Source of the DNA: Bacillota bacterium | Lineage (GTDB): Bacteria > Bacillota > Clostridia > Christensenellales > Pumilibacteraceae | Direction: 5' to 3' | Assembly (NCBI GenBank): GCA_009777485.1 | Contig: WRLT01000002.1 | Span: forward strand, 177,968-241,967 | Length of the DNA stretch: 64,000 nt | In this document: positions 18,661 through 60,653 of the stretch, piece by piece | Position numbering within the stretch: the first letter of the stretch is position 1 | How the letters are laid out: every line of letters starts with the position of its first letter | Translations under genes and position numbers: made by a program | Notes under the pieces: model-generated | The model's database searches: none | What the model was told of the DNA's origin: nothing | The model's input: the letters and a program-made list of their open reading frames with translations, nothing else

Positions 18661-21558
18661 ATGGATATTCAATCAATAGTTAAGCAATTGACGTTGGAAG
18701 AAAAGTGTTCGATGCTTTCGGGAAAAAGCTTTTGGGAAAGCCGTGATATAGAGCGGCTGGGCGTTCCTGCTATTTTTTTGGCGGACGGACCTCACGGTAT
18801 CCGCAAGCAAGCGGGCGCGGCTGACCATTTAGGGTTAAACGAAAGCTACAAGGCAACGTGCTTTCCTACCGCCGCTACGATGGCAAACAGCTTTAACACC
18901 GAGTTGGGCGAGGAAGTTGGCAAGGCGTTGGGCGTTGAGGCGGTTTGTCAAAAGGTAAACGTATTATTAGGGCCTGGCCTTAATATTAAGCGCAACCCTC
19001 TGTGCGGCAGAAACTTTGAATATTTTTCCGAAGACCCGTATTTGGCAGGTAAGATGAGCGCGGCGTATGTTAGGGGTATTCAAGCATCGGGCATTGCTGC
19101 ATGCTTAAAGCACTACGCCGCTAACAATCAAGAACACCGCCGAATGGTAGTGGATACGATTGTAGACGAGCGGACGCTGCGCGAAATTTACCTTACCAAT
19201 TTTGAAATCGGTGTAAAAGAGGGTAAATCCAAAACGATTATGAGCGCGTACAATAAAGTAAACGGCTATTACGCAAACGAAAGCGAACATCTTTTAGCGG
19301 ACGTATTGCGCAAAGACTGGGGCTTTGACGGCGTAATCGTATCGGACTGGGGCGGTCAGAACGACCGTGTTGCCGCCGTAAAAGCGGGCATGGAGTTAGA
19401 AATGCCTTCCTCTGGCGGAGAAACTAGCAAAGAGGTTTTGGCGGCGGTTCAAAGCGGTGCGTTAGACGAAAAACTAGTGGACGAATGCGTTATTAGATTG
19501 TTAGAGTTGGTAGTAGATACCGAAAAGCCTTTCGCGGGCAGAAATCCCGACGAGGTTACTCCGTTTGATGTAGACGCGCACCACGCGCTGGCGTTAAAGG
19601 CCGCAGAGGACAGCATAGTATTATTAAAAAATGATGCAAACGCATTGCCGCTTAAATCGGGCGAAAGGGTTGCCGTAGTGGGCGACTTTGCGCGCCGTTC
19701 GCGTTTCCAAGGCGCGGGCAGCAGCGGGGTAAATCCTACTAAAATAGATGCAACGTTAGACAGCATCGGTCAGTGCGGCATAACGTATGTCGGGTTTGAG
19801 GCGGGCTTTGAGCGTTTCGGCGAAAAAAGCGGCGGGCTATTAAAAAAAGCGGTTAGCTTAGCGCAAACTGCCGACACCGTTTTGGCGTACATAGGCTTAG
19901 ACGAAAAAACCGAAACCGAAGGCGCAGACCGCAAGGATATGCGTTTGCCCCAAAATCAACGCGACTTACTTAAAGCGTTAAAAGCAACCGGCAAAAAGGT
20001 TATAGCGGTTATTGCGGCGGGCGCGGCAATCGAGGTAGATTTCGACGACGACTGCAACGCGATTTTACACGGATATTTAGGCGGCCAAGCAGGCGCGGGC
20101 GCTATGCTTAACGTGCTTACGGGCAAGGTTAGCCCTAGCGGAAAGCTTGCCGAAACGTATCCTGTTGTGTATACGGATTGCCCCTCCGCTACAAATTTCC
20201 CCGGGGTGTACCGCAACGTAGAATACCGCGAGGGTATTTTTGTGGGTTACCGCTATTACGAAACCGCAGGCGAGCGCGTAAAATATCCGTTCGGCTACGG
20301 GCTGTCGTACACAAACTTTACGTATTCGGATATAAAGATTGACGAAAAAGGCGTATCGTTTATGATAGAAAATACGGGCGATACGGCGGGCGCGGAGGCG
20401 GCACAGCTGTACATCGGGCTGAAAGACAGCAAAATTTTCCGCGCTAATAAAGAGTTAAAGGGCTTTGCCAAAGTATATTTAGAGGCGGGCGAACGCAAAA
20501 AGGCGGTAATTCCGTTTGACGAATATTCGTTCCGTTATTTCAATGTTGCGACTAATAAGTGGGAAACAGAGGCGGGCGAGTACGATATTTATGTGGGCGC
20601 GTCTAGTGCGGATATCCGTTTAAGCGGAAAAATTTCCAAAAAAGGCACTACCGATGTTTTCCCCTACGATTTAAGCAAAATGCCTTCCTACGCTTCGGGC
20701 AAAGCGGGCAACGTGAGTCCCAAGGAATTTGAACTGTTGTACGGCAAGGAAGTGCCCGATTCGCGCTATCCGTTTTATAGACCCGGCCGCCTTTGGGCAG
20801 ACCACAATACGGGCATATCCGAATTGCGCTTTGCGCGCGGATGGCTGGGGCGGTTCTTTGCGTGGGTGGCTAAAAAGTTTTTTATACTGGGTATGGACCA
20901 AATGCCTTTGCGCGGACTGGTGCGCTTTGGCGGCGCGATGTCGCACGGGCAGTTAGACGGCTTAATCAGAGTATTTAACGGCAGTCCGCGTTCGGTAATT
21001 TACAGCCCCTTAATTGTCTGTATGATAGGGTTAATTCCTTTTACTTTAGGTTTAGGCGCCATTCCGATATTGTTGCTTGCCGCGCCGTGGCTGTTGTGGG
21101 ATTTACGCAAATTTCTTAAAGAAATGAAACTGCGCGGCTTAGAAAGCAAATTAGCGAACCTAGAAAAAAACGGAAAATTTGAATTTGAAATTTGGAAGGC
21201 CGAACAGAAAATTAAACAGCTTAAAAACGTGATTCCCAAAGGCTTAGCAAAAGAACTAAGAATACTTAAAAAGCAAGACGAAAAGAAGTTTGCCGCACAA
21301 ATTGCAAAGCTAGAACAACAAATCACCGCGATAAGCAACGAAAGGAAACAAAAAAACGCACCGCTTATTGCAGCCTTAGAAAATCAAATTACCGAATGGA
21401 AAAAAACTCCCGCTACCAAAGAACAGCTTGCCGAAACACAAGCGCGTATCGATAAGGTAAAGGCTAAAATAGCTAAGATAGATGCGGGGTATGCAAAATA
21501 TAAGGCTAAGTTTGACGCAAGGGTAGAAAAGCGGGCGAAGCGCAAGGCGAAGCGCTAA
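18661..21558 (+). CDS. Glycoside hydrolase family 3 beta-glucosidase fused to a C-terminal transmembrane segment and a Lys-rich coiled-coil tail
   Basis: GH3 N-terminal domain (…SGKSFWESRDIERLGVPAIFLADGPHGIR…, catalytic region GFDGVIVSDWGG) and a GH3 C-terminal domain. From about aa 760 there are hydrophobic helices (IVCMIGLIPFTLGLGAIPILLLAAPWLL) followed by about 150 aa of K/E/A-rich heptads. Confidence 0.75.
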   Translation: MDIQSIVKQLTLEEKCSMLSGKSFWESRDIERLGVPAIFLADGPHGIRKQAGAADHLGLNESYKATCFPTAATMANSFNTELGEEVGKALGVEAVCQKVNVLLGPGLNIKRNPLCGRNFEYFSEDPYLAGKMSAAYVRGIQASGIAACLKHYAANNQEHRRMVVDTIVDERTLREIYLTNFEIGVKEGKSKTIMSAYNKVNGYYANESEHLLADVLRKDWGFDGVIVSDWGGQNDRVAAVKAGMELEMPSSGGETSKEVLAAVQSGALDEKLVDECVIRLLELVVDTEKPFAGRNPDEVTPFDVDAHHALALKAAEDSIVLLKNDANALPLKSGERVAVVGDFARRSRFQGAGSSGVNPTKIDATLDSIGQCGITYVGFEAGFERFGEKSGGLLKKAVSLAQTADTVLAYIGLDEKTETEGADRKDMRLPQNQRDLLKALKATGKKVIAVIAAGAAIEVDFDDDCNAILHGYLGGQAGAGAMLNVLTGKVSPSGKLAETYPVVYTDCPSATNFPGVYRNVEYREGIFVGYRYYETAGERVKYPFGYGLSYTNFTYSDIKIDEKGVSFMIENTGDTAGAEAAQLYIGLKDSKIFRANKELKGFAKVYLEAGERKKAVIPFDEYSFRYFNVATNKWETEAGEYDIYVGASSADIRLSGKISKKGTTDVFPYDLSKMPSYASGKAGNVSPKEFELLYGKEVPDSRYPFYRPGRLWADHNTGISELRFARGWLGRFFAWVAKKFFILGMDQMPLRGLVRFGGAMSHGQLDGLIRVFNGSPRSVIYSPLIVCMIGLIPFTLGLGAIPILLLAAPWLLWDLRKFLKEMKLRGLESKLANLEKNGKFEFEIWKAEQKIKQLKNVIPKGLAKELRILKKQDEKKFAAQIAKLEQQITAISNERKQKNAPLIAALENQITEWKKTPATKEQLAETQARIDKVKAKIAKIDAGYAKYKAKFDARVEKRAKRKAKR

Positions 21559-21674
21559 GGCGCGCGTGATTCGCGCTACGCTTGCCTTACTGCCTCAGTC
21601 GCGTACATCTAGGTACAGCTGCCTTTGGCAGTAAGTCAACTGTTGCGCGACTGACGCACACCTTAGCACTTCGC
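21547..21674 (+). repeat. Structured intergenic element, copy A (variant 1), immediately after the GH3 gene stop
   Basis: Conserved blocks TACGCTTGC, GTACATCTAGGTAC and TCAACTGTTG. Internal paired segments are CTTACTGCC/GGCAGTAAG and TCAGTCGCG/CGCGACTGA. The outer inverted repeat is GCGAAGCGCTAAGG (the last 3 codons plus the TAA stop) against CCTTAGCACTTCGC. Confidence 0.7.
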
Positions 21675-21732
21675 GGCTTGTCGGGGCGCATAGCAAAAAA
21701 ATCAAAAACATAAAAAAAGGAGAGATAAACAA

Positions 21733-22902: not shown

Positions 22903-22906
22903 ACAA

Positions 22907-23368
22907 ATGACGCATCTATACTTTTACGATTTTCCGATAGGGCGGCTAGGAATTGCCGAAACCGCAGAAAAAATCAGCCATGTATCGTATGGGTTAAAAT
23001 TGCCCGCGCAGTACGAAAAGGCTGAAACCCCGCTTATCCGTCAAACGGCACAGCAGTTGACAGAATATTTTAACGGCGAACGGCAAGAATTTAGCGTACC
23101 GCTATGTGCGCAAGGCACGCCGTTTCAGCAATCCGTATGGAAAAGCTTAACGCAAATCCCGTACGGAAAAACCGTATCGTATCAAGACATTGCGCGTGCG
23201 GCGGGCAACCCTAACGCCTGCCGTGCCGCAGGGCTTGCCAACAACCGCAACCCCATAGCTATTTTAATTCCGTGCCACAGGGTAATCGGAAAAAGCGGCT
23301 GCCTTACGGGGTATGCGGGCGGCTTAGATAAAAAGCAGTTTTTGCTTGATTTAGAAAAGTCTTTTTAG
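22907..23368 (+). CDS. ogt: Methylated-DNA--protein-cysteine methyltransferase
   Basis: Active site PCHRVIG and the typical C-terminal domain. Confidence 0.85.
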   Translation: MTHLYFYDFPIGRLGIAETAEKISHVSYGLKLPAQYEKAETPLIRQTAQQLTEYFNGERQEFSVPLCAQGTPFQQSVWKSLTQIPYGKTVSYQDIARAAGNPNACRAAGLANNRNPIAILIPCHRVIGKSGCLTGYAGGLDKKQFLLDLEKSF

Positions 23369-23387: not shown

Positions 23388-24722
23388 ATGAAAAAAAGAA
23401 TCGTTTCCGCCGTATTAGTAATTTTATCGGTTGCTTTTATTTTTCCCGCCTTTGCAGGCTGCGGCGCGGCGTCGCTAAGCGAGTACAAAATTGTGTATTC
23501 GATGAATGCAACGGGCTTAGAAAAGCACGCCGCCGAATTTTTATCCGATTATATTTTCGAAACATCGGGTATTCGGTTGGAGGTAAGCAACGACGCGGGC
23601 CCTGTTGCGGCCAAAGAAATTGTAATCGGGCAAACCAACCGCGCAGTTTCGGATAATGCGGCAAAATTGACGTACGGCAAAAACGATGTACTGGTGCGGC
23701 GCGACGGCAGACACATTGTGCTGTACGGCAACGATTTAATGATAGCGGGCGCGGTGGGTACGTTTGCCTCTCAGCACGTTACGGATGAGGGCGCGTTTAA
23801 GGGCGTTTCAAGCCGCGCGCGAACTACTCAGTATCAGCAGGTTGCCGCTAAAAACATCGTTTTACTGATAGGCGACGGCATGGGCTTTAACCATATCGAG
23901 TTGGCAAAAACCAGTGCCAGCACCTTTAAATTTTTTGGCGAAATGCTGCCTAATCACGGCGAGATGGAAACTGAATCATTAGGGCTGCCCAACAATCCCT
24001 CTTATCCTCCGTGCAGTGCGTCTAACGGAACGGCTATTGCTACGGGTACTATTACGTATGCAAACTATGTAGGCGTAGATAAAGACGGAAACAGTGTAAA
24101 AAACATTACCGAAATCGCGTCTGAAAACGGCTATCAAACGGCTATTGTTACTACCGACATAGACGCAGGCGCAACGCCCGCATCGTTTTCGGCGCATATA
24201 AATAACCGCAACAACTATACCGAAATCAGAGCGCAGCAGGAGGGGGCAAAGCGGGCGGGTACGCTTAACTATTTAAAGGGGACGGGGTCAAACCCTAATC
24301 AAGCGGGTACGCCTAACGGCGGCGCCATGCAAGAATACGTGGTAGAGGCACTTTGGCAAATTCGCGGAGAGCAAGGCTTTTTTATTATGATAGAGGATGA
24401 CGATATAGACAACTGGTCGCATCAAGGCAATTCTTTGCGCATTCCTAACGTAATCAACGCGGTACGGCGGTTTAACGAGGCGGTTGCTTATGCGGTATGC
24501 TTTGCGCTGGCGCATCCCGGCACGGCGATAATTGTTACGGCAGACCACGAAACAGGCGGCTTAACGCGTAATGCAAACGGTCAGTTTAATTTTACCTCTG
24601 TAATTCATTCCTTTGCAAATGTCCCGATTTTTGCCTTCGGCGCGGGCAGCGAAATTTTTAACGAACAGACGCATCATTTGACTAAGATATTTGACTATAT
24701 GAACGGTGTTATAACTAGTTAA
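23388..24722 (+). CDS. Alkaline-phosphatase-family lipoprotein
   Basis: Lipobox FAGC. The metal-site motif is IVLLIGDGMGFNH. The C-terminal motif is VTADHETGG. Confidence 0.65.
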   Translation: MKKRIVSAVLVILSVAFIFPAFAGCGAASLSEYKIVYSMNATGLEKHAAEFLSDYIFETSGIRLEVSNDAGPVAAKEIVIGQTNRAVSDNAAKLTYGKNDVLVRRDGRHIVLYGNDLMIAGAVGTFASQHVTDEGAFKGVSSRARTTQYQQVAAKNIVLLIGDGMGFNHIELAKTSASTFKFFGEMLPNHGEMETESLGLPNNPSYPPCSASNGTAIATGTITYANYVGVDKDGNSVKNITEIASENGYQTAIVTTDIDAGATPASFSAHINNRNNYTEIRAQQEGAKRAGTLNYLKGTGSNPNQAGTPNGGAMQEYVVEALWQIRGEQGFFIMIEDDDIDNWSHQGNSLRIPNVINAVRRFNEAVAYAVCFALAHPGTAIIVTADHETGGLTRNANGQFNFTSVIHSFANVPIFAFGAGSEIFNEQTHHLTKIFDYMNGVITS

Positions 24723-24837
24723 AATGCACGTGATCCGCGCTACGCTTGTCTTTGTTTGCGCGCTTGCGTACATCTAGGTACGCGGCACGCGCAAAAAAGA
24801 CAACTGTTGCACGGCTGACGCACATTTTAACTAGTTA
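24711..24837 (+). repeat. Structured intergenic element, copy B (variant 2), overlapping the alkaline-phosphatase stop
   Basis: Blocks TACGCTTG, GCGTACATCTAGGTACGC and AACTGTTG. The inner stem is GTCTTTGTTTGCGCG/CGCGCAAAAAAGAC. The outer inverted repeat is ATAACTAGTTAAAATGCACGT against ACGCACATTTTAACTAGTTAT, 21 bp with 2 mismatches, and it includes the last codons and the TAA stop. Confidence 0.7.
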
Positions 24838-24854
24838 TACAGCAAGAGGACGGC

Positions 24855-25973
24855 ATGAAAAGCACATCTAAAAAATATGATTATGTAATTGTCGGCGCGG
24901 GGCTTTTTGGCAGCGTGTTTGCGCGCGAGGCGGTGGACAAGGGCAAGCGCGTTTTGGTAATAGACAAGCGTTTGCGCACGGGCGGCAACTGTGCGTCGGA
25001 AATGCGCGACAATATAGACGTGCATCTATACGGCGCGCATATTTTTCATACCGATTACGAGGACGTGTGGGCGTATGTAAACCGCTTTACGCGCTTTAAC
25101 AATTTTATCAATTCGCCCGTTGCTAATTTTAAGGGCAAGCTGTACAACCTGCCCTTTAACATGAATACCTTTTACGCCTTATGGGGGGTAACCACGCCGC
25201 AGGAGGCGCACAGCAAGCTAACGGCGCAGCGTGCCGCCTATGCACATATCACAGACCCCAAAAACCTAGAAGAAAAGGCCTTAACGCTTGCGGGCAGCGA
25301 TGTGTACGAAACTTTAATAAAGGGCTATACCGAAAAGCAGTGGGGCAGAAAAGCAACCGAATTGCCGCCGTTTATTATTTCGCGTCTGCCGTTTCGTCTT
25401 ACATTTGACAACAATTATTTTACCGACCGATTCCAGGGCATTCCGCAAGACGGCTATGCGGCTTTTTTTAACCGCCTGTTAGACGGCATAGAGATTAAGC
25501 TGAATACCGACTTTTTTGCCGATAGAAAGCCGCTAGGGCAACTGGCGGATAATCTTATTTTTACGGGGCGCGTAGACGAATACTTTGATTTCCGTTTAGG
25601 CGCGCTGGAATACCGTTCGCTGAACTTTGTTACCGAAACGCTTGCGTTAGAAAACTTTCAAGGCGTTGCCGTAGTGAATTACACCGATGCCGAAACGCCC
25701 TATACGCGCGTGATTGAGCATAAGCATTTCCGCGCGGACGCTAAAAGCGCGCAAACAGTAGTTACCAAAGAATACCCCGCCGAATTTGTTAGCGGAGCAG
25801 AGCCGTATTATGTAATTAACGACTCCAAAAACAACGCGCTGTACGCCGAATATAAAAAGCTGGCAGACGCCGAAAAGGGCGTGTTGTTTGGCGGGCGTTT
25901 GGCAGAATACCGCTACTACGATATGGACGATGTAATTTTATCCGCCTTACAGGAGGCTAAAAAAATACGGTGA
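24855..25973 (+). CDS. glf: UDP-galactopyranose mutase
   Basis: FAD motif YDYVIVGAGLFGSVFA. It shows extensive similarity to Glf (…YGAHIFHT…, …IKGYTEKQWGR…, …GALEYRSL…, …GGRLAEYRYYDMDDVI…). Confidence 0.9.
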   Translation: MKSTSKKYDYVIVGAGLFGSVFAREAVDKGKRVLVIDKRLRTGGNCASEMRDNIDVHLYGAHIFHTDYEDVWAYVNRFTRFNNFINSPVANFKGKLYNLPFNMNTFYALWGVTTPQEAHSKLTAQRAAYAHITDPKNLEEKALTLAGSDVYETLIKGYTEKQWGRKATELPPFIISRLPFRLTFDNNYFTDRFQGIPQDGYAAFFNRLLDGIEIKLNTDFFADRKPLGQLADNLIFTGRVDEYFDFRLGALEYRSLNFVTETLALENFQGVAVVNYTDAETPYTRVIEHKHFRADAKSAQTVVTKEYPAEFVSGAEPYYVINDSKNNALYAEYKKLADAEKGVLFGGRLAEYRYYDMDDVILSALQEAKKIR

Positions 25974-26024
25974 ACCGCGCTGGCGCAAACTGTTGCACGG
26001 CTGACCGCATTTTTTTAGCCTCCT
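25951..26024 (+). repeat. Structured intergenic element, copy C. It is a truncated derivative that keeps AACTGTTG-CACGGCTGAC but lacks the first two blocks.
   Basis: The outer inverted repeat is AGGAGGCTAAAAAAATACGG (the glf C-terminal codons, with the TGA stop immediately after) against CCGCATTTTTTTAGCCTCCT. The core GAACCGCGC…AAACTGTTGCACGGCTGAC matches the ends of copy B. Confidence 0.55.
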
Positions 26025-26067
26025 GCGGGGGGGTTGAATTAAAATAATTTTAAAGGAGTAAGTTTTT

Positions 26068-41504: not shown

Positions 41505-44500
41505 ATGAAAATAGCAAGCAAAAGTAAGAAAAAGATGGTAGGTATATTTTTAGTTTTGTGCCTTGCGGCAGCAGCAAGCCTAATCATTTTCATGCGGCCA
41601 AGTTCAACGGTCGCTCATGCATCCACAGAACTAGAGCAAAAACACATTGAATGGACAAATTCAGACATTCTGATGGACGGCGAAGGTACGATACAAAACT
41701 ATCGCACAAATCGCTATACAAACGGTGTTTCAGTTACGTCATCAGCAATGACGGTAACTGGCAATGATCCAATTATACATATAATTCCCGTGGAAGAGTT
41801 CTCAACTTTAGGGTTGAGAACATTTATGGGCGAAGAGTATGGTTGGATAATCGATGTGTTCAATGATTCATGGGGCATCCGTCGGGCGCTTATCCAAGTA
41901 ATAGATATTACTGTTAAATGGGAAAAAGTTTTAGACTACGAGTTTATGATTTCACCTTTGTTTGAGTACGAATATGCGGTAATTCCTGCAGGCACTGGAC
42001 AGGTGCGAGTAAGGCACTGCAATGTAGAGGGTCGTGTAGAGGGAGATTATGTATATACCGCGACTAATTTGCGAAACAAAACTCTAAGCTACACCAACAA
42101 CACGGGTGCGCAAAGAGTTGTTGCAATGCCTTTAATACATACACCTACAAGATTTACAGAGCGAATATCGTTTTGGGGATCAAGGAAATATAATATTCAA
42201 AACTTTTCTGTTGCAGCAGAGTTAGCTAACAGATTCGCTCCCAATCCTTGGGATACAAATTACGACTTAGACACGGATTTAGGTGCGTTCTTTTGTTTTT
42301 CGGAGTTATTATACAAGAATACGGGCATTAATGTCAGCCCCTATGATCCATGGCATACAGTAAAATTTGGTGCGTCAGTTGCGACTATTGGGTTTGATGG
42401 ACTCTTTCAATATATTGATTTATTAGTTGAGTTTTATAATTTAGTGGCAAATTCAGTAGAACCAAATGAGAAAACGTATAACGCAGTACAATATGGGGCT
42501 AGTGAATTAAGAGCTACTTATTTTGGTGATCGCTTGCAACAAAAAAGACCCCCTGATTTGCCTCTGCATGAAGATCCTGGCTATGGTAAATTGATTAAAC
42601 TTGCTTCGGTTGATGTTTTTGCAGATTTAAACAGACCTTTAAGACCACAACCATTGGATAGATATAATTCACACGGTGCAGACCACAAGGGAGGTAGATT
42701 TGGCATAGTGTGGAATGCGGAGAACTCGTCGCAATTAGTAACGACATATCAGTTTACTGTTAAAGATATGACTTTTGGTCCCACATTAAAACTTGTAAAT
42801 GGTGTTCGATATAAAAACATTGGTCTTGGTGCTGATTTGATTACTCAAAATAATGTTGTTACAGGATTTGTACCTCCCCCTAATTTCAATGGTATTTTAG
42901 AAATTCCTAATGGAGCTACAGCTATTGCTTCAAATGCTTTTGCCAACCAAGCCCAACTAACTCAAATCTTGATACCTGAATCCGTAACTACAATAGGAAA
43001 TAACGCTTTCCACGCCAACACATTGGTGAACTGGCAAGGGAACTATTCGTTTAGAGGATCACAATTTTTAGGCATTTTAGGTGGGCAGACAAGCTTTTCT
43101 TTGCCATCGACCATTGCAGGTATAAATATTACTTCAATAGCTACCGATGCTTTCTCTAACCAAACCCAGCTTTCTTACATTACCATTCCTCCAAGCATAA
43201 CCAGTATTAGCAGTTTTGCGTTTCAAGGTTGCACTGGTTTAACCTCTATTATTATACCTAAAAGTGTAACCAGTATCGGGCAAAATGCGTTTAATGGATG
43301 CCATAACTTAACCATTTTTGCCGAAGCTTCAAGTAAGCCGAATGGTTGGGATAATTTATGGAATCCGCATAATCAAACCGTAGTGTGGAGTTTTAACTCT
43401 GCCTTGCCTTTTGCAATTACAGACGGCGCGTATTATGTACTGGAAGGAGGCGAAACGGTTTTAAGACGGTATATAGGTAACGAAAGTCAATTTTCTTTAC
43501 CCGATTCTGTTGTAATTGACGGAGTTAGCCGTCCCGTGACAAGCATTATGCGGGGTGCGTTTGAGGGCGCGAATAACTTAGAGTTAATCGAATTGCCGTT
43601 TATAGGTGAAAGAGCAGACGGAACGGGTGCAACGCATTTTGGTTGGATATTCGGCTCAACGCACGCTGTTGTGCAAGGCTACCATATTCCGCAATCGCTA
43701 AAAACGGTGGAAATTGTAAATAGCGGTAATAGTATCCGAATCGAAGATGATGCGTTTCACGGTTGCGCAAATATTTGGTATATTCATATACCTGCTAATG
43801 TTACCTATATTTCTGATAAAGTTTATTTTAGTGCGTTTGAGGGCTGCTCAAGCTTAATTAAAATTATTGTTAACGGCGGAAATTTGCACTATGCAAGCAC
43901 TGATGACGGAATATTATATGATATAGAGAAAACCCGTATTATTTATGTGCCGCATGGTATTAGCGGAGATATTGAGTTGCCGTCCTCGTTAATCAGTATT
44001 TCAGAGCGGGCGTTTGAAAATCGCGTAGACATTACAAGCATTGTTATTCCCGAAAGCGTTACGCATATCGGATTAAATGCGTTTAGTAATACGGTTGTTT
44101 TGGAAATAGAGGATGACGTAATTTATGCGGGAAACTGGGCAGTAGGATTTTTGCACAAGAATGGTTATTATGACTCAAACGGTAATTTTATGTATGAAGT
44201 TACGGTTTCGCTAAGACCTGGTACTGTGGGGATTGCTGACAGGGCATTTAGTAGTGCTAATTCTTTAACAAGTATCCATCTACCTGATAGCTTAAAATAT
44301 ATCGGAAATGGGGCTTTTTGGTTTGCAACGAAATTAGCTGAAATAGACATCCCCGAAGGTGTGGTAAGTATCGGCGAGGAAGCGTTTTTGCGCTGTGATT
44401 CTTTGCGCAGTGTTAAGCTACCCGACAGCTTAACGTATCTTGGCTATCGTGCATTTTTTAACTGCGGTCGCCTTTTGGAAATAAATTTACCAATTGGCAT

Positions 44501-46856
44501 AGAACATGTAAAAGCGGGAGCATTTTTGGGTTGTTCGAACTTGGCGAAGGTCATTTTTTCTAGTGACTTAAGAGAAATTGATGCTGGAGCATTTGCAATG
44601 ATATCTGAATTGACAAGCATAGTTATACCTAATTCTGTGGAGCGTATTGGACAAGGTGCATTTCACAGTAGTTTTATAGAAACTATAAGTTTACCGTTTG
44701 TAGGTGAAAGAGCAGACGGAATGGGTGCTAGGAATTTTGATTATATATTTCGTGAGAGCGAGTTATATTCTAGTTTTTGGTTAAGACTTGATAGCGCAAC
44801 TATAATGGGTGGAGATATTTCATCGAATGCATTTAATGGTTTAGATGAGCTAACAAATGTTGTCCTTTCTAGTGGCGTAGTGAACGTAGAAGCAAACGCA
44901 TTTCAAGATTGCACCAATTTAACGATTTATGTCGAAGAGGAAAGTCAACCGCTTAATTGGGCAACTAATTGGAATTCTGGTCGCCCCGTTATATACGGTA
45001 CTACATTGTCGGTGGACACATTATATATTGAATCAATTATAAAGACTACGGATATGCATAATGGGCATGTAATTTCTGCGCCTTCACGTGCAGACCATGT
45101 TTTTAGCGGCTGGAATACGGCGACGGATGGAAGCGGCACCAACTATTTATTTACAACTCAATTGGATTACAACGCTATACCAAACGGAACTAAATTATAT
45201 ACTATGTGGGTGCATGTTTTGGATATTATTAATGTGATAAGTAATGATGAATTGATAATTGTTTGCGATAACACTTTGCCTAAATTTGAGGCAGCAGAGT
45301 TTACAATACGCGGAGTAGAGTCTTTGGCGTTTTTTTATGGCAATTCATTTGACAATACTATTTCTGAGTTTAATTTATTAGATGTGCTTCATCTTGCGCC
45401 CGAAACTTATGTGCTTGATACGTTGATTATTAAATATAGACTTAAATTTGAAGAAAGACCTTGGACAAAAAATTTTGAAAAAGAAGTATGTGCTTTATTT
45501 GGCGGTAAATTAATGCTTGACGGAATAACATATGAAATTATAAATAGTGAGCGGCACTTAAGAAATATAAGGGCAGAGGGAAATTATATTTTAACTCATA
45601 ATATAAATATCGATTCTAATTGGACACCGCTTTCAATAAATTTCAGTGGCCTATTTAATGGGAATGGGAATAGTATCACGGCTGCTAATTTAATTGTAAT
45701 ATCGGATAATTTATTTGCCAATAATAACGGAGAGATTATAAATCTAGATGACCCCTATGCTGGGCTTGATATAGTAGGCAATACCGTTACAGGCTACTTC
45801 GGCACCTCTGCCGCAATCGCTATCCCCGAAGAGGTTGACGGAATAGCGGTAACGTCTATCGCCGCAGGCGCATTCGCCGACAATACAAGCCTAACCAGCG
45901 TTTCCATTCCGCACAGCGTAACCTCTATCGGTTTAGGCGCGTTTAGCGGCACGGAGAGCCTAGAAAACCTAAGCATTCCGTTTAGCGGGCAAAACCGCAA
46001 CGGCGGCAATAACACGCACTTCGGCTACATATTCGGCGCGCAAAACATGAACGGGCAAGCCTCCTTTATTCCGCAATCGCTAAAAACGGTGCGCATAGAC
46101 GGCTTAAACGGTACGCAAATCGCCAACAACGCGTTTAACGGCATAGGCGGCGTAGAAACCGTAATCATCGCAGACGGCGTAACCACAATCGGCAGCGACG
46201 CGTTCCGCAACAATTCCGCGCTTACCTTTATAGAAATTGCCTCTACCGTTTCCAACATCGCCAACGCATTCGGCAACAGCCCCAACGCGGCGGTCAAGTG
46301 GCATTTTAACGCCGGCGCGGCGGTTAATAATTTCCGCATGAACCTAACGGAGGTTGTCATTCCCGACACCGTTACGGCACTCCCGAACAACGCCTTCCGC
46401 GACTGCGTGAACCTAGTTAGCGTAACAATCCCCGCCAGCGTAACGTCTATCGGCAACAGCGCGTTTCAAGGTTGTGTAAGCCTAACCGAAATCGCACTGC
46501 CCGCAAGTGTTACGGAAATAGGGGCGCACGCGTTTAACGGCGCAACAAGCTTAACCGACATCATTATTCCGCACGGCGTAACCACCATCCGCGACAACAC
46601 CTTTAGCGGTTGCAGCGCACTAACTAGCATTGTCATTCCCGCCAGCGTAACGCAAATCCAAAGCGACGCGTTCCGCAACTGCAACGCCTTAACTACCGTC
46701 TACTACGGCGGCGAAAGCGCGGCGCAGTTTAACGCCATAAACACAGGCAACAACGCACAGGTTGTAAACGCAACGCGCTACTATTATTCCGAAACCGAAC
46801 CCGCAACACAAGGAAACTTTTGGCACTTTGCAGACGGCGTTCCCACCGCGTGGTAA
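41505..46856 (+). CDS. Giant cell-surface protein of 1783 aa with BspA-type leucine-rich repeats
   Basis: Signal peptide. It has dozens of repeats of the form [IL]xIPxSVTxIGxxAFxxCxxLTxI. The C-terminal block YYGGESAAQFNAINTGNNAQVVNATRYYYSETEPATQGNFWHFADGVPTAW is paralogous to the C-terminus of the 2..2902 product. Confidence 0.7.
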   Translation: MKIASKSKKKMVGIFLVLCLAAAASLIIFMRPSSTVAHASTELEQKHIEWTNSDILMDGEGTIQNYRTNRYTNGVSVTSSAMTVTGNDPIIHIIPVEEFSTLGLRTFMGEEYGWIIDVFNDSWGIRRALIQVIDITVKWEKVLDYEFMISPLFEYEYAVIPAGTGQVRVRHCNVEGRVEGDYVYTATNLRNKTLSYTNNTGAQRVVAMPLIHTPTRFTERISFWGSRKYNIQNFSVAAELANRFAPNPWDTNYDLDTDLGAFFCFSELLYKNTGINVSPYDPWHTVKFGASVATIGFDGLFQYIDLLVEFYNLVANSVEPNEKTYNAVQYGASELRATYFGDRLQQKRPPDLPLHEDPGYGKLIKLASVDVFADLNRPLRPQPLDRYNSHGADHKGGRFGIVWNAENSSQLVTTYQFTVKDMTFGPTLKLVNGVRYKNIGLGADLITQNNVVTGFVPPPNFNGILEIPNGATAIASNAFANQAQLTQILIPESVTTIGNNAFHANTLVNWQGNYSFRGSQFLGILGGQTSFSLPSTIAGINITSIATDAFSNQTQLSYITIPPSITSISSFAFQGCTGLTSIIIPKSVTSIGQNAFNGCHNLTIFAEASSKPNGWDNLWNPHNQTVVWSFNSALPFAITDGAYYVLEGGETVLRRYIGNESQFSLPDSVVIDGVSRPVTSIMRGAFEGANNLELIELPFIGERADGTGATHFGWIFGSTHAVVQGYHIPQSLKTVEIVNSGNSIRIEDDAFHGCANIWYIHIPANVTYISDKVYFSAFEGCSSLIKIIVNGGNLHYASTDDGILYDIEKTRIIYVPHGISGDIELPSSLISISERAFENRVDITSIVIPESVTHIGLNAFSNTVVLEIEDDVIYAGNWAVGFLHKNGYYDSNGNFMYEVTVSLRPGTVGIADRAFSSANSLTSIHLPDSLKYIGNGAFWFATKLAEIDIPEGVVSIGEEAFLRCDSLRSVKLPDSLTYLGYRAFFNCGRLLEINLPIGIEHVKAGAFLGCSNLAKVIFSSDLREIDAGAFAMISELTSIVIPNSVERIGQGAFHSSFIETISLPFVGERADGMGARNFDYIFRESELYSSFWLRLDSATIMGGDISSNAFNGLDELTNVVLSSGVVNVEANAFQDCTNLTIYVEEESQPLNWATNWNSGRPVIYGTTLSVDTLYIESIIKTTDMHNGHVISAPSRADHVFSGWNTATDGSGTNYLFTTQLDYNAIPNGTKLYTMWVHVLDIINVISNDELIIVCDNTLPKFEAAEFTIRGVESLAFFYGNSFDNTISEFNLLDVLHLAPETYVLDTLIIKYRLKFEERPWTKNFEKEVCALFGGKLMLDGITYEIINSERHLRNIRAEGNYILTHNINIDSNWTPLSINFSGLFNGNGNSITAANLIVISDNLFANNNGEIINLDDPYAGLDIVGNTVTGYFGTSAAIAIPEEVDGIAVTSIAAGAFADNTSLTSVSIPHSVTSIGLGAFSGTESLENLSIPFSGQNRNGGNNTHFGYIFGAQNMNGQASFIPQSLKTVRIDGLNGTQIANNAFNGIGGVETVIIADGVTTIGSDAFRNNSALTFIEIASTVSNIANAFGNSPNAAVKWHFNAGAAVNNFRMNLTEVVIPDTVTALPNNAFRDCVNLVSVTIPASVTSIGNSAFQGCVSLTEIALPASVTEIGAHAFNGATSLTDIIIPHGVTTIRDNTFSGCSALTSIVIPASVTQIQSDAFRNCNALTTVYYGGESAAQFNAINTGNNAQVVNATRYYYSETEPATQGNFWHFADGVPTAW

Positions 46857-46929: not shown

Positions 46930-47255
46930 TTGACATATTTTAATAAATAGGGTAGTATATAAGCGTTACAAGCAGATGAGTAATCTCACCGTGCGGCAAG
47001 CGGCTGGCTACGGTAACGCAAAAATCAGATTTCAAAAGTGTTTTTAAAGCACTTTTTAAATACTTTTGCGGGTAGAGATAGTCATCTCTACCCGTTTTCT
47101 TTTTTTTGCCGATATCTTTTTAATAAATTTCCGTTTTTTTTTGCCCCTATTACGTAGCGTTGCTACGCTTTTGGGTCAAAAAAAATCGCAAATTTTTTTA
47201 AAAATCTATTCGGCAAAAATTGTCCCCTAAATTATCCCTAAGGAGGGTAAAGCCC
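46930..47255 (+). promoter_or_regulatory. Promoter plus infC-rpmI-rplT leader, with an attenuator hairpin (L20-type autoregulatory leader)
   Basis: TTGACA at 46930 and TAGTAT at 46953. The leader is about 300 nt and structured. The intrinsic terminator GCGGGTAGAGATAGTCATCTCTACCCG plus a T-run lies at 47068-47108, inside the leader before infC. Confidence 0.5.
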
Positions 47256-52607: not shown

Positions 52608-53708
52608 ATGAAATTAGTTTGCAACGGTAATGATTTAAGCGCGGCGGTGGGTCAGGTTATTAAGGCGGCCGCATCTAAAACTACCAACCCGATTTTAGAG
52701 GGCATACACTTAAAGGCGGCGGCAGGGACGCTTACGCTTACCGCTACCGATTTAGAATTAGCCATAGAAAAGCATATCCGTGCCGATGTTAAAATCGAGG
52801 GCGAAACGGTTGTGCCGGGACGCTTTTTTGCCGAGTTTGTAAAAAAACTTACGCAAGAGCAAATCGAGCTTAGCTGTACCGACAGCCGCTTAAAAATTCG
52901 GTACACCGATTCGGAGGGAACGCTGCAATGCTTACCCGCCGCCGAATTTCCGCCCGTTAAAGAGCTTTCGGACGCGCAAAAGTTTACGATTATCCGCAGT
53001 GAATTTAAAGACCTTATCCATAAAATCGCATTTTCGGTAAGCTTAGACGATGCGCGCCCGATGTTAAAAGGCGTATTGTTGGAAGTAGGCGATGTGTCGG
53101 TAACGGGCGTTGCGTTAGACGGCTACCGCTTAGCCAAATGCGTAAAGCCTATCGAAAAAACTACCGCTATGTTCAGCGCGGTAGTGCCGAGCCGCTGCTT
53201 AAACGAAATTGCGCGTATTTTAGACGATTCGTCCGACCCCGTTGAAATCAGCATTCAAAAAAATTACTTAATGGTAAATTTAGACCATACGCGCATTACT
53301 ACGCGTCTGTTAGACGGCGACTATATCAATTATAAGCAAATCATTCCTACTAATTTTGAGTCACAAGTTACCGTCCCGCGCGAGGCTTTCGAGCAAGGCT
53401 TAGAGCGCGCCATTTTATTAGCCAAAGCCGAGCGCAACAATTTGGTTAAGTTTGATATTAAAGACGATGTGATGCGCTTAGAATCCAACTCTGAAATCGG
53501 CAACATTTTAGAAAAAATTCCCGTAAAAATCAGCGGCATGGATATTACCATTGCGTTTAACGCGCGGTATTTTACCGAGCTTTTGCGCTATATCACCGTA
53601 GACCACATCGTAATCAAATTTATCAATTCGGTATCGCCCTGTATAGTCGCGCCGAGCGGCGGGGCGGAGGATTTTATGTACTTAATCCTACCCGTCCGCA
53701 TGATTTAG
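52608..53708 (+). CDS. dnaN: DNA polymerase III beta sliding clamp
   Basis: MKLVCNGNDL… beta-clamp three-domain sequence. AAAAGGAG lies 8 nt upstream of the ATG at 52608. The listed start at 52563 lies within the promoter. Confidence 0.85.
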   Translation: MKLVCNGNDLSAAVGQVIKAAASKTTNPILEGIHLKAAAGTLTLTATDLELAIEKHIRADVKIEGETVVPGRFFAEFVKKLTQEQIELSCTDSRLKIRYTDSEGTLQCLPAAEFPPVKELSDAQKFTIIRSEFKDLIHKIAFSVSLDDARPMLKGVLLEVGDVSVTGVALDGYRLAKCVKPIEKTTAMFSAVVPSRCLNEIARILDDSSDPVEISIQKNYLMVNLDHTRITTRLLDGDYINYKQIIPTNFESQVTVPREAFEQGLERAILLAKAERNNLVKFDIKDDVMRLESNSEIGNILEKIPVKISGMDITIAFNARYFTELLRYITVDHIVIKFINSVSPCIVAPSGGAEDFMYLILPVRMI

Positions 53709-53831
53709 CTGTTTCAATTTTGGCTTGAAAAGCACTACGCTTTGTTTTTTTGCGCGCTTGCGTACATCTAGGTACGCGGCACGCGCAAAAAAATAAACTG
53801 TTGTACAACTTGCACTCAAAATTGAAACAGC
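53708..53831 (+). repeat. Structured intergenic element, copy D (variant 2), between dnaN and dnaX
   Basis: Blocks CTACGCTTTG, TTGCGTACATCTAGGTACGC and AACTGTTG. The inner stem is TTTTTTTGCGCGC/GCGCGCAAAAAAA. The outer perfect 15-bp inverted repeat is GCTGTTTCAATTTTG (starting at the dnaN stop) against CAAAATTGAAACAGC. Confidence 0.7.
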
Positions 53832-55470: not shown

Positions 55471-55794
55471 ATGAAATTCGGCGGGTTCGGGGGCGGCGGC
55501 ATGAACATGCAAGCAATGATGCGTCAAGCCCAAAAAATGCAAGAACAAATGAAACAGGCGCAAGAAGAATTAGAGGCGGCTGAGGTTGAGGGCAGCAGCG
55601 GCGGCGGTTTAGTAACCGTATCGTTAAACGGCAAAGGAAAAATGCTGGGCATTAAAATCAAGCCCGAAGCCGTAGACCCCGACGATATCGAGATGCTGGA
55701 AGATTTAATTACAGCCGCCTTTACTTCCGCATCCGAACAAGCGGAGGCGTTGGAGGCGGAAAAAATGCCCGCCGGCATGGGCGGCCTATTTTAA
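55471..55794 (+). CDS. ybaB: Nucleoid-associated protein YbaB/EbfC
   Basis: …MMRQAQKMQEQMKQAQEEL…GGLVTVSLNGKGKMLGIKI…. Confidence 0.85.
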   Translation: MKFGGFGGGGMNMQAMMRQAQKMQEQMKQAQEELEAAEVEGSSGGGLVTVSLNGKGKMLGIKIKPEAVDPDDIEMLEDLITAAFTSASEQAEALEAEKMPAGMGGLF

Positions 55795-55917
55795 CGGCAC
55801 AAATATGCCGTATACGAACTACGCTTGCCTTGCCGCCTCAGTTGTGTACATCTAGGTACACGCCCTTCGGCGGCGCGGCAACTGTTGTCCGTCTACGACA
55901 CATTTGTGCCGTTAAAA
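55789..55917 (+). repeat. Structured intergenic element, copy E (variant 3), between ybaB and recR
   Basis: CCGTATACG-AACTACGCTTGCC-TTGCCGCC-TCAGTTGTGTACATCTAGGTACACGCCCTTCGGCGGCGCGGCAACTGTTG-TCCGTCTACG. The outer inverted repeat is TTTTAACGGCACAAATATG (including the ybaB TAA stop) against CACATTTGTGCCGTTAAAA. Confidence 0.7.
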
Positions 55918-57518: not shown

Positions 57519-57750
57519 AGTTGATTATTAAATCCTCCAAAAGTTAAACATCTTAGTTTGCCGTCATCGTAGGCAGCATGGTTTCTTATATTCTACAAAA
57601 TATCGCACCATAATGCAAGCACAATAGATAAAAGTACGCAAAATAGAAAATATTCGCTTTTGCATTTGCTAAATATTATAAAGATAAGTCTTGACAAAAG
57701 GGCATATATACCTATATAATATAGGTAATCTTTTTACGGAGGCAGAGAAA

Positions 57751-58684
57751 ATGAAAACCGCAGGAAAAAAAAGCAATAGGACTGCTAGCCTTGTTTTTGT
57801 TATGCGTTACGGTTTTTTCTGCGTGTGAACTTTTTGGCGGCGTTAAGGACGGGCGCACGTTGGAAGGCGTAACCATGACAACCGAAAGCTTAACGTATCC
57901 GCGTGATGTAGAAGTTATTACGGTTATTTGGGAAAACAATACCGACAAAAACTTGCTTTTCGGCGATTACTATCATTTGGAAAGACAATCCAATAACAAA
58001 TGGCAAACGGTCAAGTCCAAAAACACGGACTTTAACGATATCGGCTACGATTTAGCGCCCCACTCCGCGCATAGCCACAGCTATCCTATAAAGTTTGGGT
58101 ATAGCAATCTTAAAGCAGGCAAGTATAGACTGGCAGCCCACTTTTTTGATTTTTCCGATATCCCCGTTACCGAAGACGATAAATATTGGGTGTATGCGGA
58201 ATTTGATTTGCTAACGGATAAAGCGGCACGTGCAGCGGGGCATTTTTTTATGACGGGTTTCGGCGGCGGGCTGCAAAACTTTCCGTTTGAAACTTATCGT
58301 CCTGACCATCAGCCTGAATATTATTACCCTTTAATAATTCCTATAACAAGCAAAGAACAAACAGCCGTTTTTTCCGAAGTGCATTCACAAACATGGAACG
58401 GCTTTTGGGAAAAGAACAACATATTTACCGACTTAATCGCAAGCTACGACGATGCCTTTTTTAAAGACAAGCAGCTGATAACTTTTTTTGTTACGGCGGC
58501 GGGCGGCGCGTATAGGTTTGAGTTGTCGCTAACCGTTTACGCAGACGGGGTTTTAAGGATTTACCTAAATCATTTTTCAATAGGAGGAGGACACGACGCA
58601 TTAGTTGATTGGTTTGCTATTGTTGAGGTTGATAAAATTCCTGCGGATACCGAAATAGAAATAATAATCAATAATCGGTGGTAA
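57751..58684 (+). CDS. Lipoprotein gene interrupted by a +1 frameshift in an A8 homopolymer. It is a candidate phase-variable gene or a sequencing indel.
   Basis: The ATG at 57751 has GGAGGCAGAG upstream and encodes MKTAGKK, then leaves frame after the A8 run at 57765-57772. With seven A's it reads MKTAGKKAIGLLALFLLCVTVFSAC…, a perfect lipobox, continuous with ORF 57791..58684. Confidence 0.5.
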
Positions 58685-58724
58685 TTTATTTTTTAGTTTT
58701 TTTAAAAAAGTGCTGAAAAACTGT

Positions 58725-58759
58725 TGACAATTATTTTGAATTTTACTATAATAACTAAG
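58725..58759 (+). promoter_or_regulatory. Consensus sigma-A promoter (TTGACA-17-TATAAT) of the S10 operon
   Basis: TTGACAATTATTTTGAATTTTACTATAAT. Confidence 0.55.
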
Positions 58760-58846
58760 CTTGGCGTTTGCTAGGTATTTTTTATCCGTGCTAAAATGGC
58801 ACACCCGACCCAGTTGTCAAAACTGTAAAAAAGAGGTAACCGTCCT

Positions 58847-59155
58847 ATGGCAAGTCAGAAAATCAGAATTAAATTAAAAGCATACGACCACGAGCTTTTA
58901 GATAGTTCGGCGGCGCGTATTGTAGAAACCGCCCGCAAAACAGGCACTAGGGTAACAGGCCCGCTGCCGCTGCCTACCGATAAAGAGGTAGTTACCATAC
59001 TGCGCGCGGTGCATAAGTATAAGGATTCGCGCGAGCAGTTCGAAACTAAAACGCATAAACGTCTTATCGACATTTACAGCCCGTCCTCTAAAACGGTGGA
59101 TTCGCTTATGAAGTTGGATTTGCCCGCAGGCGTAGACATACAGATTAAATTATAA
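58847..59155 (+). CDS. rpsJ: 30S ribosomal protein S10
   Basis: [19 protein letters not shown]…. Confidence 0.9.
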
Positions 59156-59188
59156 CAAGGTTCGTTATTTGTTAAAAAAGGATTGAAC

Positions 59189-59821
59189 ATGGAAAAGGCT
59201 ATTATAGGTAAAAAATTAGGCATGACCCAGGTCTTCGATGAAACAGGAATTATGATACCTGTTACCGTAGTTGAGGCCGGGCCTATGACGGTAGTACGTA
59301 AAAAAACGTTAGAGCGCGACGGTTATGCCGCGCTGGTAACGGCTTTTGGCGCGGCAAAAGAAGATGCTTTAAACCAACCCGAAGCGGGGCTTTTTAAAAA
59401 GGCCAAGCTGTCGGCTAAAAAGGTATTAAAAGAGTTTAAGTTTTCCGATTGCGAAAAGTTTGACATAGGCAGCGATATCAAATGCGACATTTTTTCTAAC
59501 GGCGATGTCGTAGACGTAAGCGGCGTAAGCAAAGGGCACGGTTTTGCGGGAACGATTAAACGGTGGGGGCACAGCCGCCTTAAAGAAACGCACGGTACGG
59601 GCCCCGTTGTGCGGCACGGCGGTTCGCAAGGCGCGCGTTCTACCCCAGGGCGCGTTATAAAAGGAATGAAAATGCCCGGTCAATACGGCAGCGAAAACGT
59701 AACGGTTCAAAATCTTAAAATAGTTAAAGTAGACCTTGCCCGCAACGTATTACTGATAAAGGGTGCGGTTCCGGGCCCTAACGGCGGATTAGTTACGGTA
59801 AAACAAGCCGTCAAACAATAG
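59189..59821 (+). CDS. rplC: 50S ribosomal protein L3
   Basis: MEKAIIGKKLGMTQVFDE… The ATG at 59189 lies 6 nt after AAAAAAGGA. The listed start at 59183 is a TTG. Confidence 0.9.
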   Translation: MEKAIIGKKLGMTQVFDETGIMIPVTVVEAGPMTVVRKKTLERDGYAALVTAFGAAKEDALNQPEAGLFKKAKLSAKKVLKEFKFSDCEKFDIGSDIKCDIFSNGDVVDVSGVSKGHGFAGTIKRWGHSRLKETHGTGPVVRHGGSQGARSTPGRVIKGMKMPGQYGSENVTVQNLKIVKVDLARNVLLIKGAVPGPNGGLVTVKQAVKQ

Positions 59822-59841
59822 AAAGGAGCAAACTGGCAAAC

Positions 59842-60531
59842 ATGGCTAACGTAAATGTATATAAGCAAACGGGCGAGAAAAAAGGCTCGGTAAAGTTGGA
59901 CGACTCGGTTTTCGGGGCGGAGTTCAACGAGCCGCTCGTGCATCAGGTAATTACGGCACAGCGCAACAACGCCCGTCAAGGCACGAAGTGCAGCTTAACG
60001 CGTACCGAAGTGCGCGGCGGCGGCAAAAAACCGTGGCGGCAAAAAGGCACGGGGCGTGCGCGGCACGGTTCTAGCCGTTCGCCTATTTGGACAGGCGGCG
60101 GTGTAGCATTCGCGCCTAAGCCCCGCGATTTTTCGCAAAAGATTAACAAACAACAACGGCGCGGCGCATTGATTTCGGTGCTGTCGGAAAAGGTAGCCAA
60201 AGACCAGTTTCTTATTATAGACGAGATCAATTTAAAAGATGTTAAAACCAAAGAAATGTCCGCAATTTTTGAAGCGTTTAAATTAGATATAAAAACGCAT
60301 ACCGTAACGGACGACGCAGGCAAAAAGGTACAAAAGGTAAGTAAGGCATTGCCGAAAATTTTACTGGTAGTAGGCGAAAACGATGCAAACGTAGTGCGCG
60401 CCGCAAAAAACATACCGTATGTAAAAACCGTTTCAGGCGCGTTGGTAAACGTATACGATTTGGTGGTAAGCGATAAATGCGTAGTTACGTTGGAGGCGGC
60501 AAAAAAAATCGAAGAGGCCTACAAGGATTAA
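59842..60531 (+). CDS. rplD: 50S ribosomal protein L4
   Basis: MANVNVYKQTGEKKGSVKLDD…. Confidence 0.9.
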   Translation: MANVNVYKQTGEKKGSVKLDDSVFGAEFNEPLVHQVITAQRNNARQGTKCSLTRTEVRGGGKKPWRQKGTGRARHGSSRSPIWTGGGVAFAPKPRDFSQKINKQQRRGALISVLSEKVAKDQFLIIDEINLKDVKTKEMSAIFEAFKLDIKTHTVTDDAGKKVQKVSKALPKILLVVGENDANVVRAAKNIPYVKTVSGALVNVYDLVVSDKCVVTLEAAKKIEEAYKD

Positions 60532-60653
60532 ACGGTTTATACGCACCGTATACGCACTACGCTTGCCTTGCCGCCTCAGTTGAGTACATCTGAGTACACG
60601 CCTTTCGGCGGCGCGGCAACTGTTGTCCGTCTACGGCACGTCTAAACCGTTTA
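60529..60653 (+). repeat. Structured intergenic element, copy F (variant 3, about 92% identical to copy E), between rplD and rplW inside the S10 operon
   Basis: CCGTATACG-CACTACGCTTGCC-TTGCCGCC-TCAGTTGAGTACATCTGAGTACACGCCTTTCGGCGGCGCGGCAACTGTTG-TCCGTCTACGG. The outer inverted repeat is TAAACGGTTTATACG (including the rplD TAA stop) against CGTCTAAACCGTTTA. Confidence 0.7.

Follow-up and report, generated by a model that had tools for sequence, protein, structure and literature searches.

REP sequences and REPINs, which are associated with RAYT proteins (Y1 HUH transposases), are short imperfect palindromes of intergenic transcribed DNA that form non-autonomous hairpins of ~100 nt, with conserved asymmetric bases in the stem and a possible strand bias with respect to replication. 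MITEs (miniature inverted-repeat transposable elements) such as Correia, ERIC/IRU, and RUP measure ~100–130 bp, have hairpin potential, insert inside operons, and comprise subfamilies and internally deleted copies. Comparable features characterize a family of hairpins present in six copies (A–F) in a stretch of 64,000 nucleotides from an uncultured gut Bacillota bacterium of the Clostridia, family Pumilibacteraceae (contig WRLT01000002.1), referred to here as the window; each copy lies at the end of a gene and is enclosed by a stem in which that gene end is mirrored. The family belongs with the known repeat elements of bacteria as an unusual variant and is not a new kind of system. According to the preferred reading, which is tentative and has a probability of about 0.45, the elements are non-autonomous REPIN/MITE-like mobile hairpins, proper to a sparsely sampled lineage of Clostridia, whose arms are made by fold-back copying and that later decay by internal deletion.

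Related Repeat Elements

As in REPINs, the palindrome is extragenic, forms a long hairpin, and occurs in many copies, with 8 in ~73 kb of one genome, including two further copies (G and H) located just outside the window on the contig as extended via the flanking sequence L021. The 5' block contains an invariant CTAC, and the 3' arm has CTAC or CTGAC on the same strand, both at mismatch positions and not inverted; the CTAC of the element (GTAG on the other strand) recalls the GTAG motif of REPs, a likeness taken as a lead only. However, REP/REPIN sequences are not described with locus-specific mirror flanks or with stems including the upstream stop codon, and no RAYT or TnpA gene is encoded in the 73 kb examined. 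With MITEs the family shares terminal inverted repeats common to all copies, represented by the basal stem and its variants; in contrast to MITEs, the flanking repeat is inverted, 12–17 bp long, and locus-specific, and copies A–F show no direct target-site duplication of fixed length, neither a consistent TA nor any other direct repeat. A parent insertion sequence (IS) with matching ends was not found, blastn of the core against plasmids and phages giving no match and the scan of viral contigs for the conserved block pattern 0 matches.

Integron attC sites (59-base elements, VCRs) are imperfect hairpins of 60–140 bp that likewise lie directly past stop codons in the same orientation, vary in sequence while keeping their structure and fixed unpaired bases, and fold better as the bottom strand. 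Assignment to this class was rejected, the ends having no R''/R' boxes (RYYYAAC...GTTRRRY) and the neighbours being core genes and not cassettes; attC-like ends are found only in E and loosely in B, where they arise incidentally from a TAAC sequence at the stop codon, and not in A, C, and D, and no intI, cassette array, or integrase is present in the window. IS1397 and ISKpn1 (PMC1525189) are also cases of mobile DNA at the centre of a palindrome, but their palindrome is a pre-existing genomic repeat of constant sequence, whereas here it is unique and comes from the local gene end.

Template-switch mutation perfects stems, expands inverted-repeat arms (from 7 to 25 bp in one event), and generates multi-base compensatory changes and spacer inversion (PMC8794818, PMC13100816), the mutation of quasipalindromes by this route going back to Ripley 1982 and Lovett 2004, 2017 as cited by these two papers. 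The resemblance lies in one arm templating the other, in stems of up to ~25 bp formed in one step, in the compensatory changes, and in loop inversion; unlike the family, template switching is a general process and not an element, and here it is apparently recruited at every copy, always toward the gene end.

Structure of the Element

Each copy is one long imperfect hairpin of 76–130 nt, with RNA minimum free energy z-scores of -5.6 to -9.0 and none of 200 dinucleotide shuffles equally stable (copies A–F). The core consists of CTACGCTTG / GTAC-N6-GTAC / CAACTGTTG with fixed 1x1 mismatches, the apical GTAC-N6-GTAC stem being common to the five full copies. The conserved blocks singled out in an earlier note on this DNA are found again: CTACGCTT(G) and (C/A)AACTGTTG occur in 5/5 full copies and GTACATCTAGGTAC in four, copy F having it with two mismatches. 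In the basal stem, 5' CGTGAT.CGCGCTACGCTTG is paired with CAACTGTTGC.CG.CTGACGC 3', variants being present in the other copies; when the arms are laid against each other, the mismatches are G.G, T.C, C.A, T.T, and C.C, with one G:T in addition. The three core variants described earlier exist within the window, while copy G adds a fourth in the genome, and the internally deleted copy is C, with a residual core of 44 nt; the view of the family as a structured repeat with turnover is upheld.

The middle stems vary between copies yet remain complementary, as the earlier note had claimed, and the covariation check that it proposed, run on 11 distinct family sequences, gives a strong signal. In particular, 93% of the cells are paired, versus 28–49% in slid controls, 15 of 26 pairs are changed on both sides, and two-sided changes outnumber one-sided ones by 49 to 10, mostly as Watson–Crick pairs with few G:U intermediates; none of 500 shuffles reaches the observed values. 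The earlier proposal of a selected secondary structure stands as regards structure and covariation, but the two-sided changes, being probably DNA-templated, do not show that selection acts on it. Between B and C the basal stem differs by a paired extra base on each side in C (ACGGTGA/TGACCGCA versus ACGTGA/TGACGCA). In all nine copies tested (9/9), the complementary strand folds better, by 2.5–22 kcal/mol. An imperfect hairpin with 42-nt arms upstream of infC (47117–47203) has at its apex GCTACGCTT, the same 9-mer as the 5' block of the family, and contains no other core part.

Outer Stems at Gene Ends

The outer stems are locus-specific and perfect, with the exception of one mismatch in A, and their left arm is the end of the upstream gene; the chance of a 12-bp arm match is ~6e-8 per site, each arm pair being at or below ~6e-8. 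The arms measure 12–17 bp, against the 15–25 bp given earlier, and differ at every locus (A–F), in agreement with the first description. The same description took the left arm as the last codons plus the stop codon, which applies to A, B, E, and F, while in D the arm includes only the last base of the stop and in C it is wholly coding. The right arm mirrors native gene-end sequence, as expected from that account: YbaB ends with ...GLF* and L4 with ...EEAYKx*, and both C-termini and stops are at the same position in relatives. In copy C, the 20 nt outside the perfect arm are still 55% complementary.

The insertion points are 2–14 nt past the stop codon in every case, and such positions account for 11% of intergenic bases; compared with uniform intergenic insertion, the P value of this clustering is ~2e-6 when the six copies are counted and ~2e-8 when all eight are, and 7e-5 within the hit spacers alone. 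All copies are on the + strand (6/6 in the window, 8/8 with G and H), so that orientation specificity holds for these copies but is not a general rule, because the element of the related contig L009 is antisense to its ribosomal operon. Since the GC skew is positive across the window, which is leading strand throughout, and 56/62 genes are on the + strand, the directions of replication and transcription are confounded and the orientation cannot be tied to transcription.

As already stated in the earlier note, the outer stems are not terminators: they have no T-runs, none is called terminator-like, and copies E, F, and G lie inside operons, the counts of terminator-like structures being not above those of shuffles (8 vs 10.4 and 17 vs 14.8). 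Among other candidates set aside, IS200/IS605-type insertion 3' of a fixed tetranucleotide finds only A/T-richness shared by the left junctions, a target duplication of TA would agree with F, G, and H and not with the other copies, and guide-type pairing between right arm and target has no constant guide, since the arms differ at each locus. The arm TTTTAACGGCAC of E and the arm TTTAACGGCGC of a hairpin at rplV in the related contig L022 (8937–8975) are 11/12 identical at unrelated genes, and the E flank ACGGCAC equals the 3' terminus of F (CTACGGCAC, 60630–60639); among these few copies, either a target preference for TAACGG or an arm part carried along on moving might account for the likeness.

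Position and Context of the Copies

The six copies reported earlier are all in place, each on the + strand. Copy A (21547–21674; 94.8 bits with model R1) is located 3' of a GH3 glycosidase gene (18661–21558, Pfam), and its 14-bp outer stem is formed by the left arm at 21547–21560 (GCGAAGCGCTAAGG), containing the stop TAA at 21556–21558, and the right arm at 21661–21674 (CCTTAGCaCTTCGC, one mismatch), with the core at 21561–21660 between them. Copy B (24710–24839; 91.8 bits), between an alkaline-phosphatase-like gene and glf, has a 17-bp outer stem, the left arm being at 24710–24726 (TATAACTAGTTAAAATG) with TAA at 24720–24722, the core at 24727–24822, and the right arm at 24823–24839. The internally deleted copy C (25950–26025), 3' of glf, does not match model R1; its residual core (25966–26009) separates a left arm that is wholly coding (25950–25965, CAGGAGGCTAAAAAAA) from the right arm (26010–26025), the stem measures 16 bp, and the glf stop TGA (25971–25973) is provided by the core and not by the arm.

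Copy D (53708–53831; 87 bits) lies between dnaN and dnaX; the first base of its left arm (53708–53722) is the last base of the stop TAG (53706–53708), and a 15-bp outer stem with the right arm (53817–53831) encloses the core at 53723–53816. Copy E (55789–55917; 102.9 bits) is placed between ybaB and recR, with a 16-bp outer stem made of 55789–55804 (TTTTAACGGCACAAAT, stop TAA at 55792–55794) and 55902–55917 around the core at 55805–55901. Copy F (60528–60654; 95.1 bits) separates rplD from rplW in the S10 operon, whose promoter, a perfect one, is found upstream at 58724–58752; the 12-bp outer stem pairs 60528–60539 (TTAAACGGTTTA, stop TAA at 60529–60531) with 60643–60654, and the core occupies 60540–60642. 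Outside the window, copy G (57.7 bits) lies between rplF and rplR in the spc operon, with arms TAAAGCCGATTA/TAATCGGCTTTA that begin at TAA, and copy H, 3' of infA, is composed of 13-bp arms around 18 nt ending in TACGCCGTC, the 3' terminus of the family.

The neighbours of D–G are core housekeeping genes (dnaN, dnaX, ybaB, recR, rplD, rplW, rplF, and rplR), E, F, and G being internal to the dnaX-ybaB-recR, S10, and spc operons, respectively. Pfam scans and neighbour tables describe the window as an ordinary Clostridia chromosome, and the Pfam scan of its ~60 genes and of the flank L021 shows no transposase, RAYT, TnpA, reverse transcriptase, or integrase.

Relatives and Orthologous Loci

The family is rare in public collections. 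A pattern scan with the three conserved blocks yields four matches in genome contigs, of which three are real and one is a chance match in Saprospiraceae, and one in metagenome contigs, the source genome being absent from the species-representative genomes scanned. In Rfam only a tRNA of the window passes the threshold and no family matches the element; the best sub-threshold match, on E, is the plant miRNA MIR5534 (31.6 bits, the threshold being 79), which is simply a long hairpin of generic type. Relatives are present in three other Clostridia metagenome-assembled genomes (MAGs) or contigs at unrelated loci. L006 and L008, from a Hadza gut Clostridia MAG, and L005, from the human-gut MAG HGM11380, have the same blocks, GTACATCTTTGTAC at the apex, and conserved termini of greater length (GTGACRGCGTATAC.../...GTCTACGCCGTCAC). 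In L006 and L008 the upstream open reading frame stops at the TGA of the conserved terminus, and these two are regarded as being without locus-specific arms, because pairing past the terminus extends by only +1 and +3 bp. In L009 the core occupies the gap from rplC to rplD in antisense orientation to these two genes, and its local inverted repeat of 10 bp lies ~100 nt away from the stop of rplC; a relative 83% identical to L009 has no family member. A distant element (L017, 18 bits) lies 3' of rpsN, where a 9-bp stem (TAATAAAAG/CTTTTATTA) covers the stop.

Contigs whose proteins are identical to those of the D–F loci belong to the same strain (0–1 single-nucleotide polymorphism, SNP) and carry the elements; the one strain SNP in 2.2 kb (60583, A>T, in L002) is inside F and restores a base pair. 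The nearest relatives are 84–74% identical in RecR and 76–74% in L4, a distance at which the spacers are unalignable at the nucleotide level. As regards the absence of the downstream arm, which the earlier note had proposed to look for in relatives, rplD and rplW overlap by 1–4 nt (ATGA or TAATG), with the ribosome-binding site (RBS) of rplW within rplD and no hairpin, in the three nearest relatives (3/3), though none offers an alignable empty site. The spacer in the window is 147 nt and the L4 stop position is unchanged, the spacer also holding ~25 nt with a new RBS; judging from these three distant relatives, no hairpin pre-existed at F.

At ybaB/recR, the related contigs L010 (9821–9865) and L013 (9537–9580 and 9846–9889) have a perfect hairpin of the last codons, the stop, and 6–8 nt, with a loop of 3–5 nt and no core. 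These hairpins are orthologous, with ...TTATCT after the stop in both, and each is perfect (21 and 15–18 bp) despite left arms differing at several positions; L013 has two copies of the hairpin, whose loops are inverted relative to each other (CTTTA vs TAAAG). A bare stop hairpin without core also occurs at rplV in L022. A third hairpin family, beginning with ATGATGTTTTCGCTTGCGCGAAAATGA, comes after each of the bare hairpins in L010 and L013.

Origin of the Arms

Invariant blocks at fixed mismatches, recurring at unrelated loci and in several organisms, show the conserved core to be the moving unit. In the preferred reading, the core would land a few bases past a stop codon, and its strong hairpin would let the nascent + strand, after copying the 3' half of the element, fold back onto the 5' half during replication; the polymerase would then take the upstream flank of the nascent strand itself (the gene end) as its template and afterwards switch back to the original one. 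The result would be a mirror gene end on the far side and a stem growing outward as a perfect locus-specific helix that engulfs the stop codon. Only left-to-right copying is seen, since copying the opposite way would write over the gene end and be lost. Continued template switching would preserve the match between the arms, with paired indels and two-sided changes as its outcome, and overly perfect palindromes would be deleted internally, so that bare hairpins of the gene end remain; effects on mRNA, such as a buried stop or uncoupling of neighbour genes, would be consequences and not the cause of the arms.

A fold-back or template-switch origin of the arms is inferred from sequence comparison: paired indels, two-sided changes, arms that are perfect despite divergence of the flanks, and loop inversion match the published template-switch signature, and so does the decayed complementarity outside the perfect inner arm of copy C. 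A decay series from the full copy through C (44-nt core) and H (18-nt loop) to the bare hairpins (3–5-nt loops) is likewise suggested. The arms are not obligatory, L006 and L008 having conserved termini and hardly any extra pairing.

Several points weigh against this reading. A flank-derived stem accompanies 8/8 copies of the genome, L009, and the distant L017, a uniformity that is surprising for sporadic mutation and that would follow naturally if copying were part of insertion. The 1x1 mismatches of the core are conserved and uncorrected, which requires the extra assumption that selection favours recognition or disfavours long palindromes that are perfect, and the clustering 2–14 nt past stops is unexplained by template switching and needs targeting or purifying selection; the ~25 nt and new RBS in the F spacer are outside the model. 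Among the available relatives, moreover, no nucleotide-level empty site or strain polymorphism is found. The stop-proximal bias and the conserved mismatches point to a protein that would recognize the folded single strand.

It is possible, though rather unlikely, that the inverted duplication of the target is instead coupled to insertion: the 5' end of a single-stranded hairpin would be joined to the 3'-OH of the target, and the base-paired 3' end would prime along the upstream target strand, so that copies are born as flank, core, and mirror flank. The flank-derived arms at 8/8 copies, in L009 (10 bp), and in L017 (9 bp) agree with this route, as do their perfect or almost perfect state, the constant use of the upstream side as template, the tight clustering of insertion points, and the invariant asymmetric blocks at fixed mismatches, which resemble a protein recognition site on folded single-stranded DNA. 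However, L006 and L008 share the core family yet have no locus-specific arms, and the paired indels, the loop inversion, and the decayed outer complementarity of C show continued arm templating after insertion; no transposase, RAYT, TnpA, or reverse transcriptase is encoded in the window or the flanks scanned and, to our knowledge, the chemistry of an inverted target duplication has no precedent. The inverted target duplication put forward in the earlier note is not required, L006 and L008 being virtually without such arms and the arm features fitting template switching. Doubtful to a still greater degree is the stronger claim that the mirror gene end would be the obligatory product of an undescribed single-strand hairpin transposition with hairpin-primed target copying and stop-proximal preference, yielding an inverted and not a direct target-site duplication.

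In a further reading, quite improbable, perfect stop-spanning palindromes pre-exist in the genome and the core inserts at their centre, as IS1397 does into REP loops. Bare stop hairpins without core do exist at ybaB (L010, L013) and rplV (L022), and 25/205 gene ends in the clade have a stop-spanning perfect inverted repeat of at least 9 bp, versus 1–3/205 at control positions; IS elements targeting REP hairpins are also documented (PMC1525189). Yet the window holds no stop-spanning hairpin without element, the overlap of rplD and rplW in three relatives leaves no room for a hairpin, and removal of the core would leave loop-less perfect palindromes of 24–34 bp at six unrelated genes, themselves needing a generator. 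Long perfect palindromes are expected to be unstable. H, moreover, keeps the 3' terminus of the core in an otherwise bare hairpin, and the bare hairpins are therefore better read as deletion remnants.

Very improbable is a selected sense-RNA structure of the 3' end, the other option of the earlier note, in which a buried stop would regulate termination, coupling, or mRNA decay. The location of copies inside transcribed operons means that an RNA hairpin must form, covariation is strong, and copies are always near stop codons; E. coli REPs within 15 nt of stop codons reportedly cause ribosome stalling, in work by Liang, Rudd and Deutscher from 2015. Nevertheless, 17 matching bases are impossible by point mutation and selection, so that a copying step is needed anyway, G:U intermediates are few, the host genes differ at each locus with no common function, and the option is further weakened by the better folding of the antisense strand in all nine copies and by the antisense position of L009 in its operon. 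Assembly artefacts or chimeric joins at repeats, finally, have a practically negligible probability: repeats often break or mis-join metagenome assemblies and several related contigs are short, but loci D, E, and F recur with 0–1 SNP in independent assemblies from other samples and centres (ENA ERZ27257348, ERZ27257296; JGI 3300002469), with flanking genes intact and syntenic.

Other Features of the Window and Related Contigs

A second, unrelated hairpin family of ~100–130 nt is present in relatives, with arms in which a heptamer or octamer, another one at each locus, is repeated in tandem: (TGATAAA)n, which begins at the TGA of a stop codon, (GGAAGTA)n, (GTGCAGTA)n, (AAACGAA)n, (CAATTAT)n/(TGTGCAT)n, and (TAAGATG)n. 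Its core starts with (C/A)GGAT(G/A)A, its right arm often ends with ATTGGAG, the RBS of the next gene, and it occupies many ribosomal-operon junctions. It is found in L010 (4755–4905, 5420–5560, 12525–12735, 13185–13305, and 14010–14295), at many ribosomal-protein junctions of L019, in L022 (6918–7147 and 11488–11720), and in L013 (9600–9740). A further relative, L014, contains a GC-rich REP-like repeat, GTGCGGGTCGCAGAGGACTGCGACCCCTACATGT, in inverted pairs (9700–9900, 12250–12475, 14755–15146, and 19900–20100), one of them in the ybaB/recR gap.

In the window, dense nested inverted repeats (6420–6680) directly follow the only tRNA (6343–6415) and are upstream of a 23S-rRNA-IVP/Avd-like gene (6685–7032) and a DMP19-like gene (7029–7580). 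A low-GC island (7981–14821; GC 0.31 at 8–12 kb) encodes a 618-aa D12-class adenine methyltransferase and several open reading frames without Pfam match, and then a Dcm-type methylase and a HaeIII-family endonuclease. The genes at 248–2902 and 41505–46856 each specify a BspA-type leucine-rich-repeat protein of very large size (884 and 1783 aa, respectively); proteins of this type are typical surface proteins of gut-associated Clostridia. In L021 (12769–13755), ~2.8 kb past the right edge of the window, L5 has an N-terminal extension of ~170 aa, rich in Ala, Lys, and Pro, with histone-H1-like AAKP/KPAAA repeats; its L5 domains start from residue 172, and L5 of relatives is long as well (253–265 aa).

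Biological Meaning

Approximately one in eight gene ends of the clade carries a stop-spanning hairpin. If an obligatory transposition pathway were true, the decay products would seed gene-end hairpins and might represent a natural route to attC-like structures. If fold-back copying is the correct explanation, new stem-loops specific to each gene would be written over stop codons, even in ribosomal-protein operons, by the joint action of a selfish hairpin repeat and a common error of replication. The two-sided changes, being probably DNA-templated, are no proof of selection on RNA structure, which is a caution for covariation analysis in general. How long stems originate is a long-standing puzzle, and the family would offer a concrete example in nature of where perfect 3'-end hairpins come from; these could in turn serve as starting material for terminators, for elements of RNA stability, and for structures resembling recombination sites.

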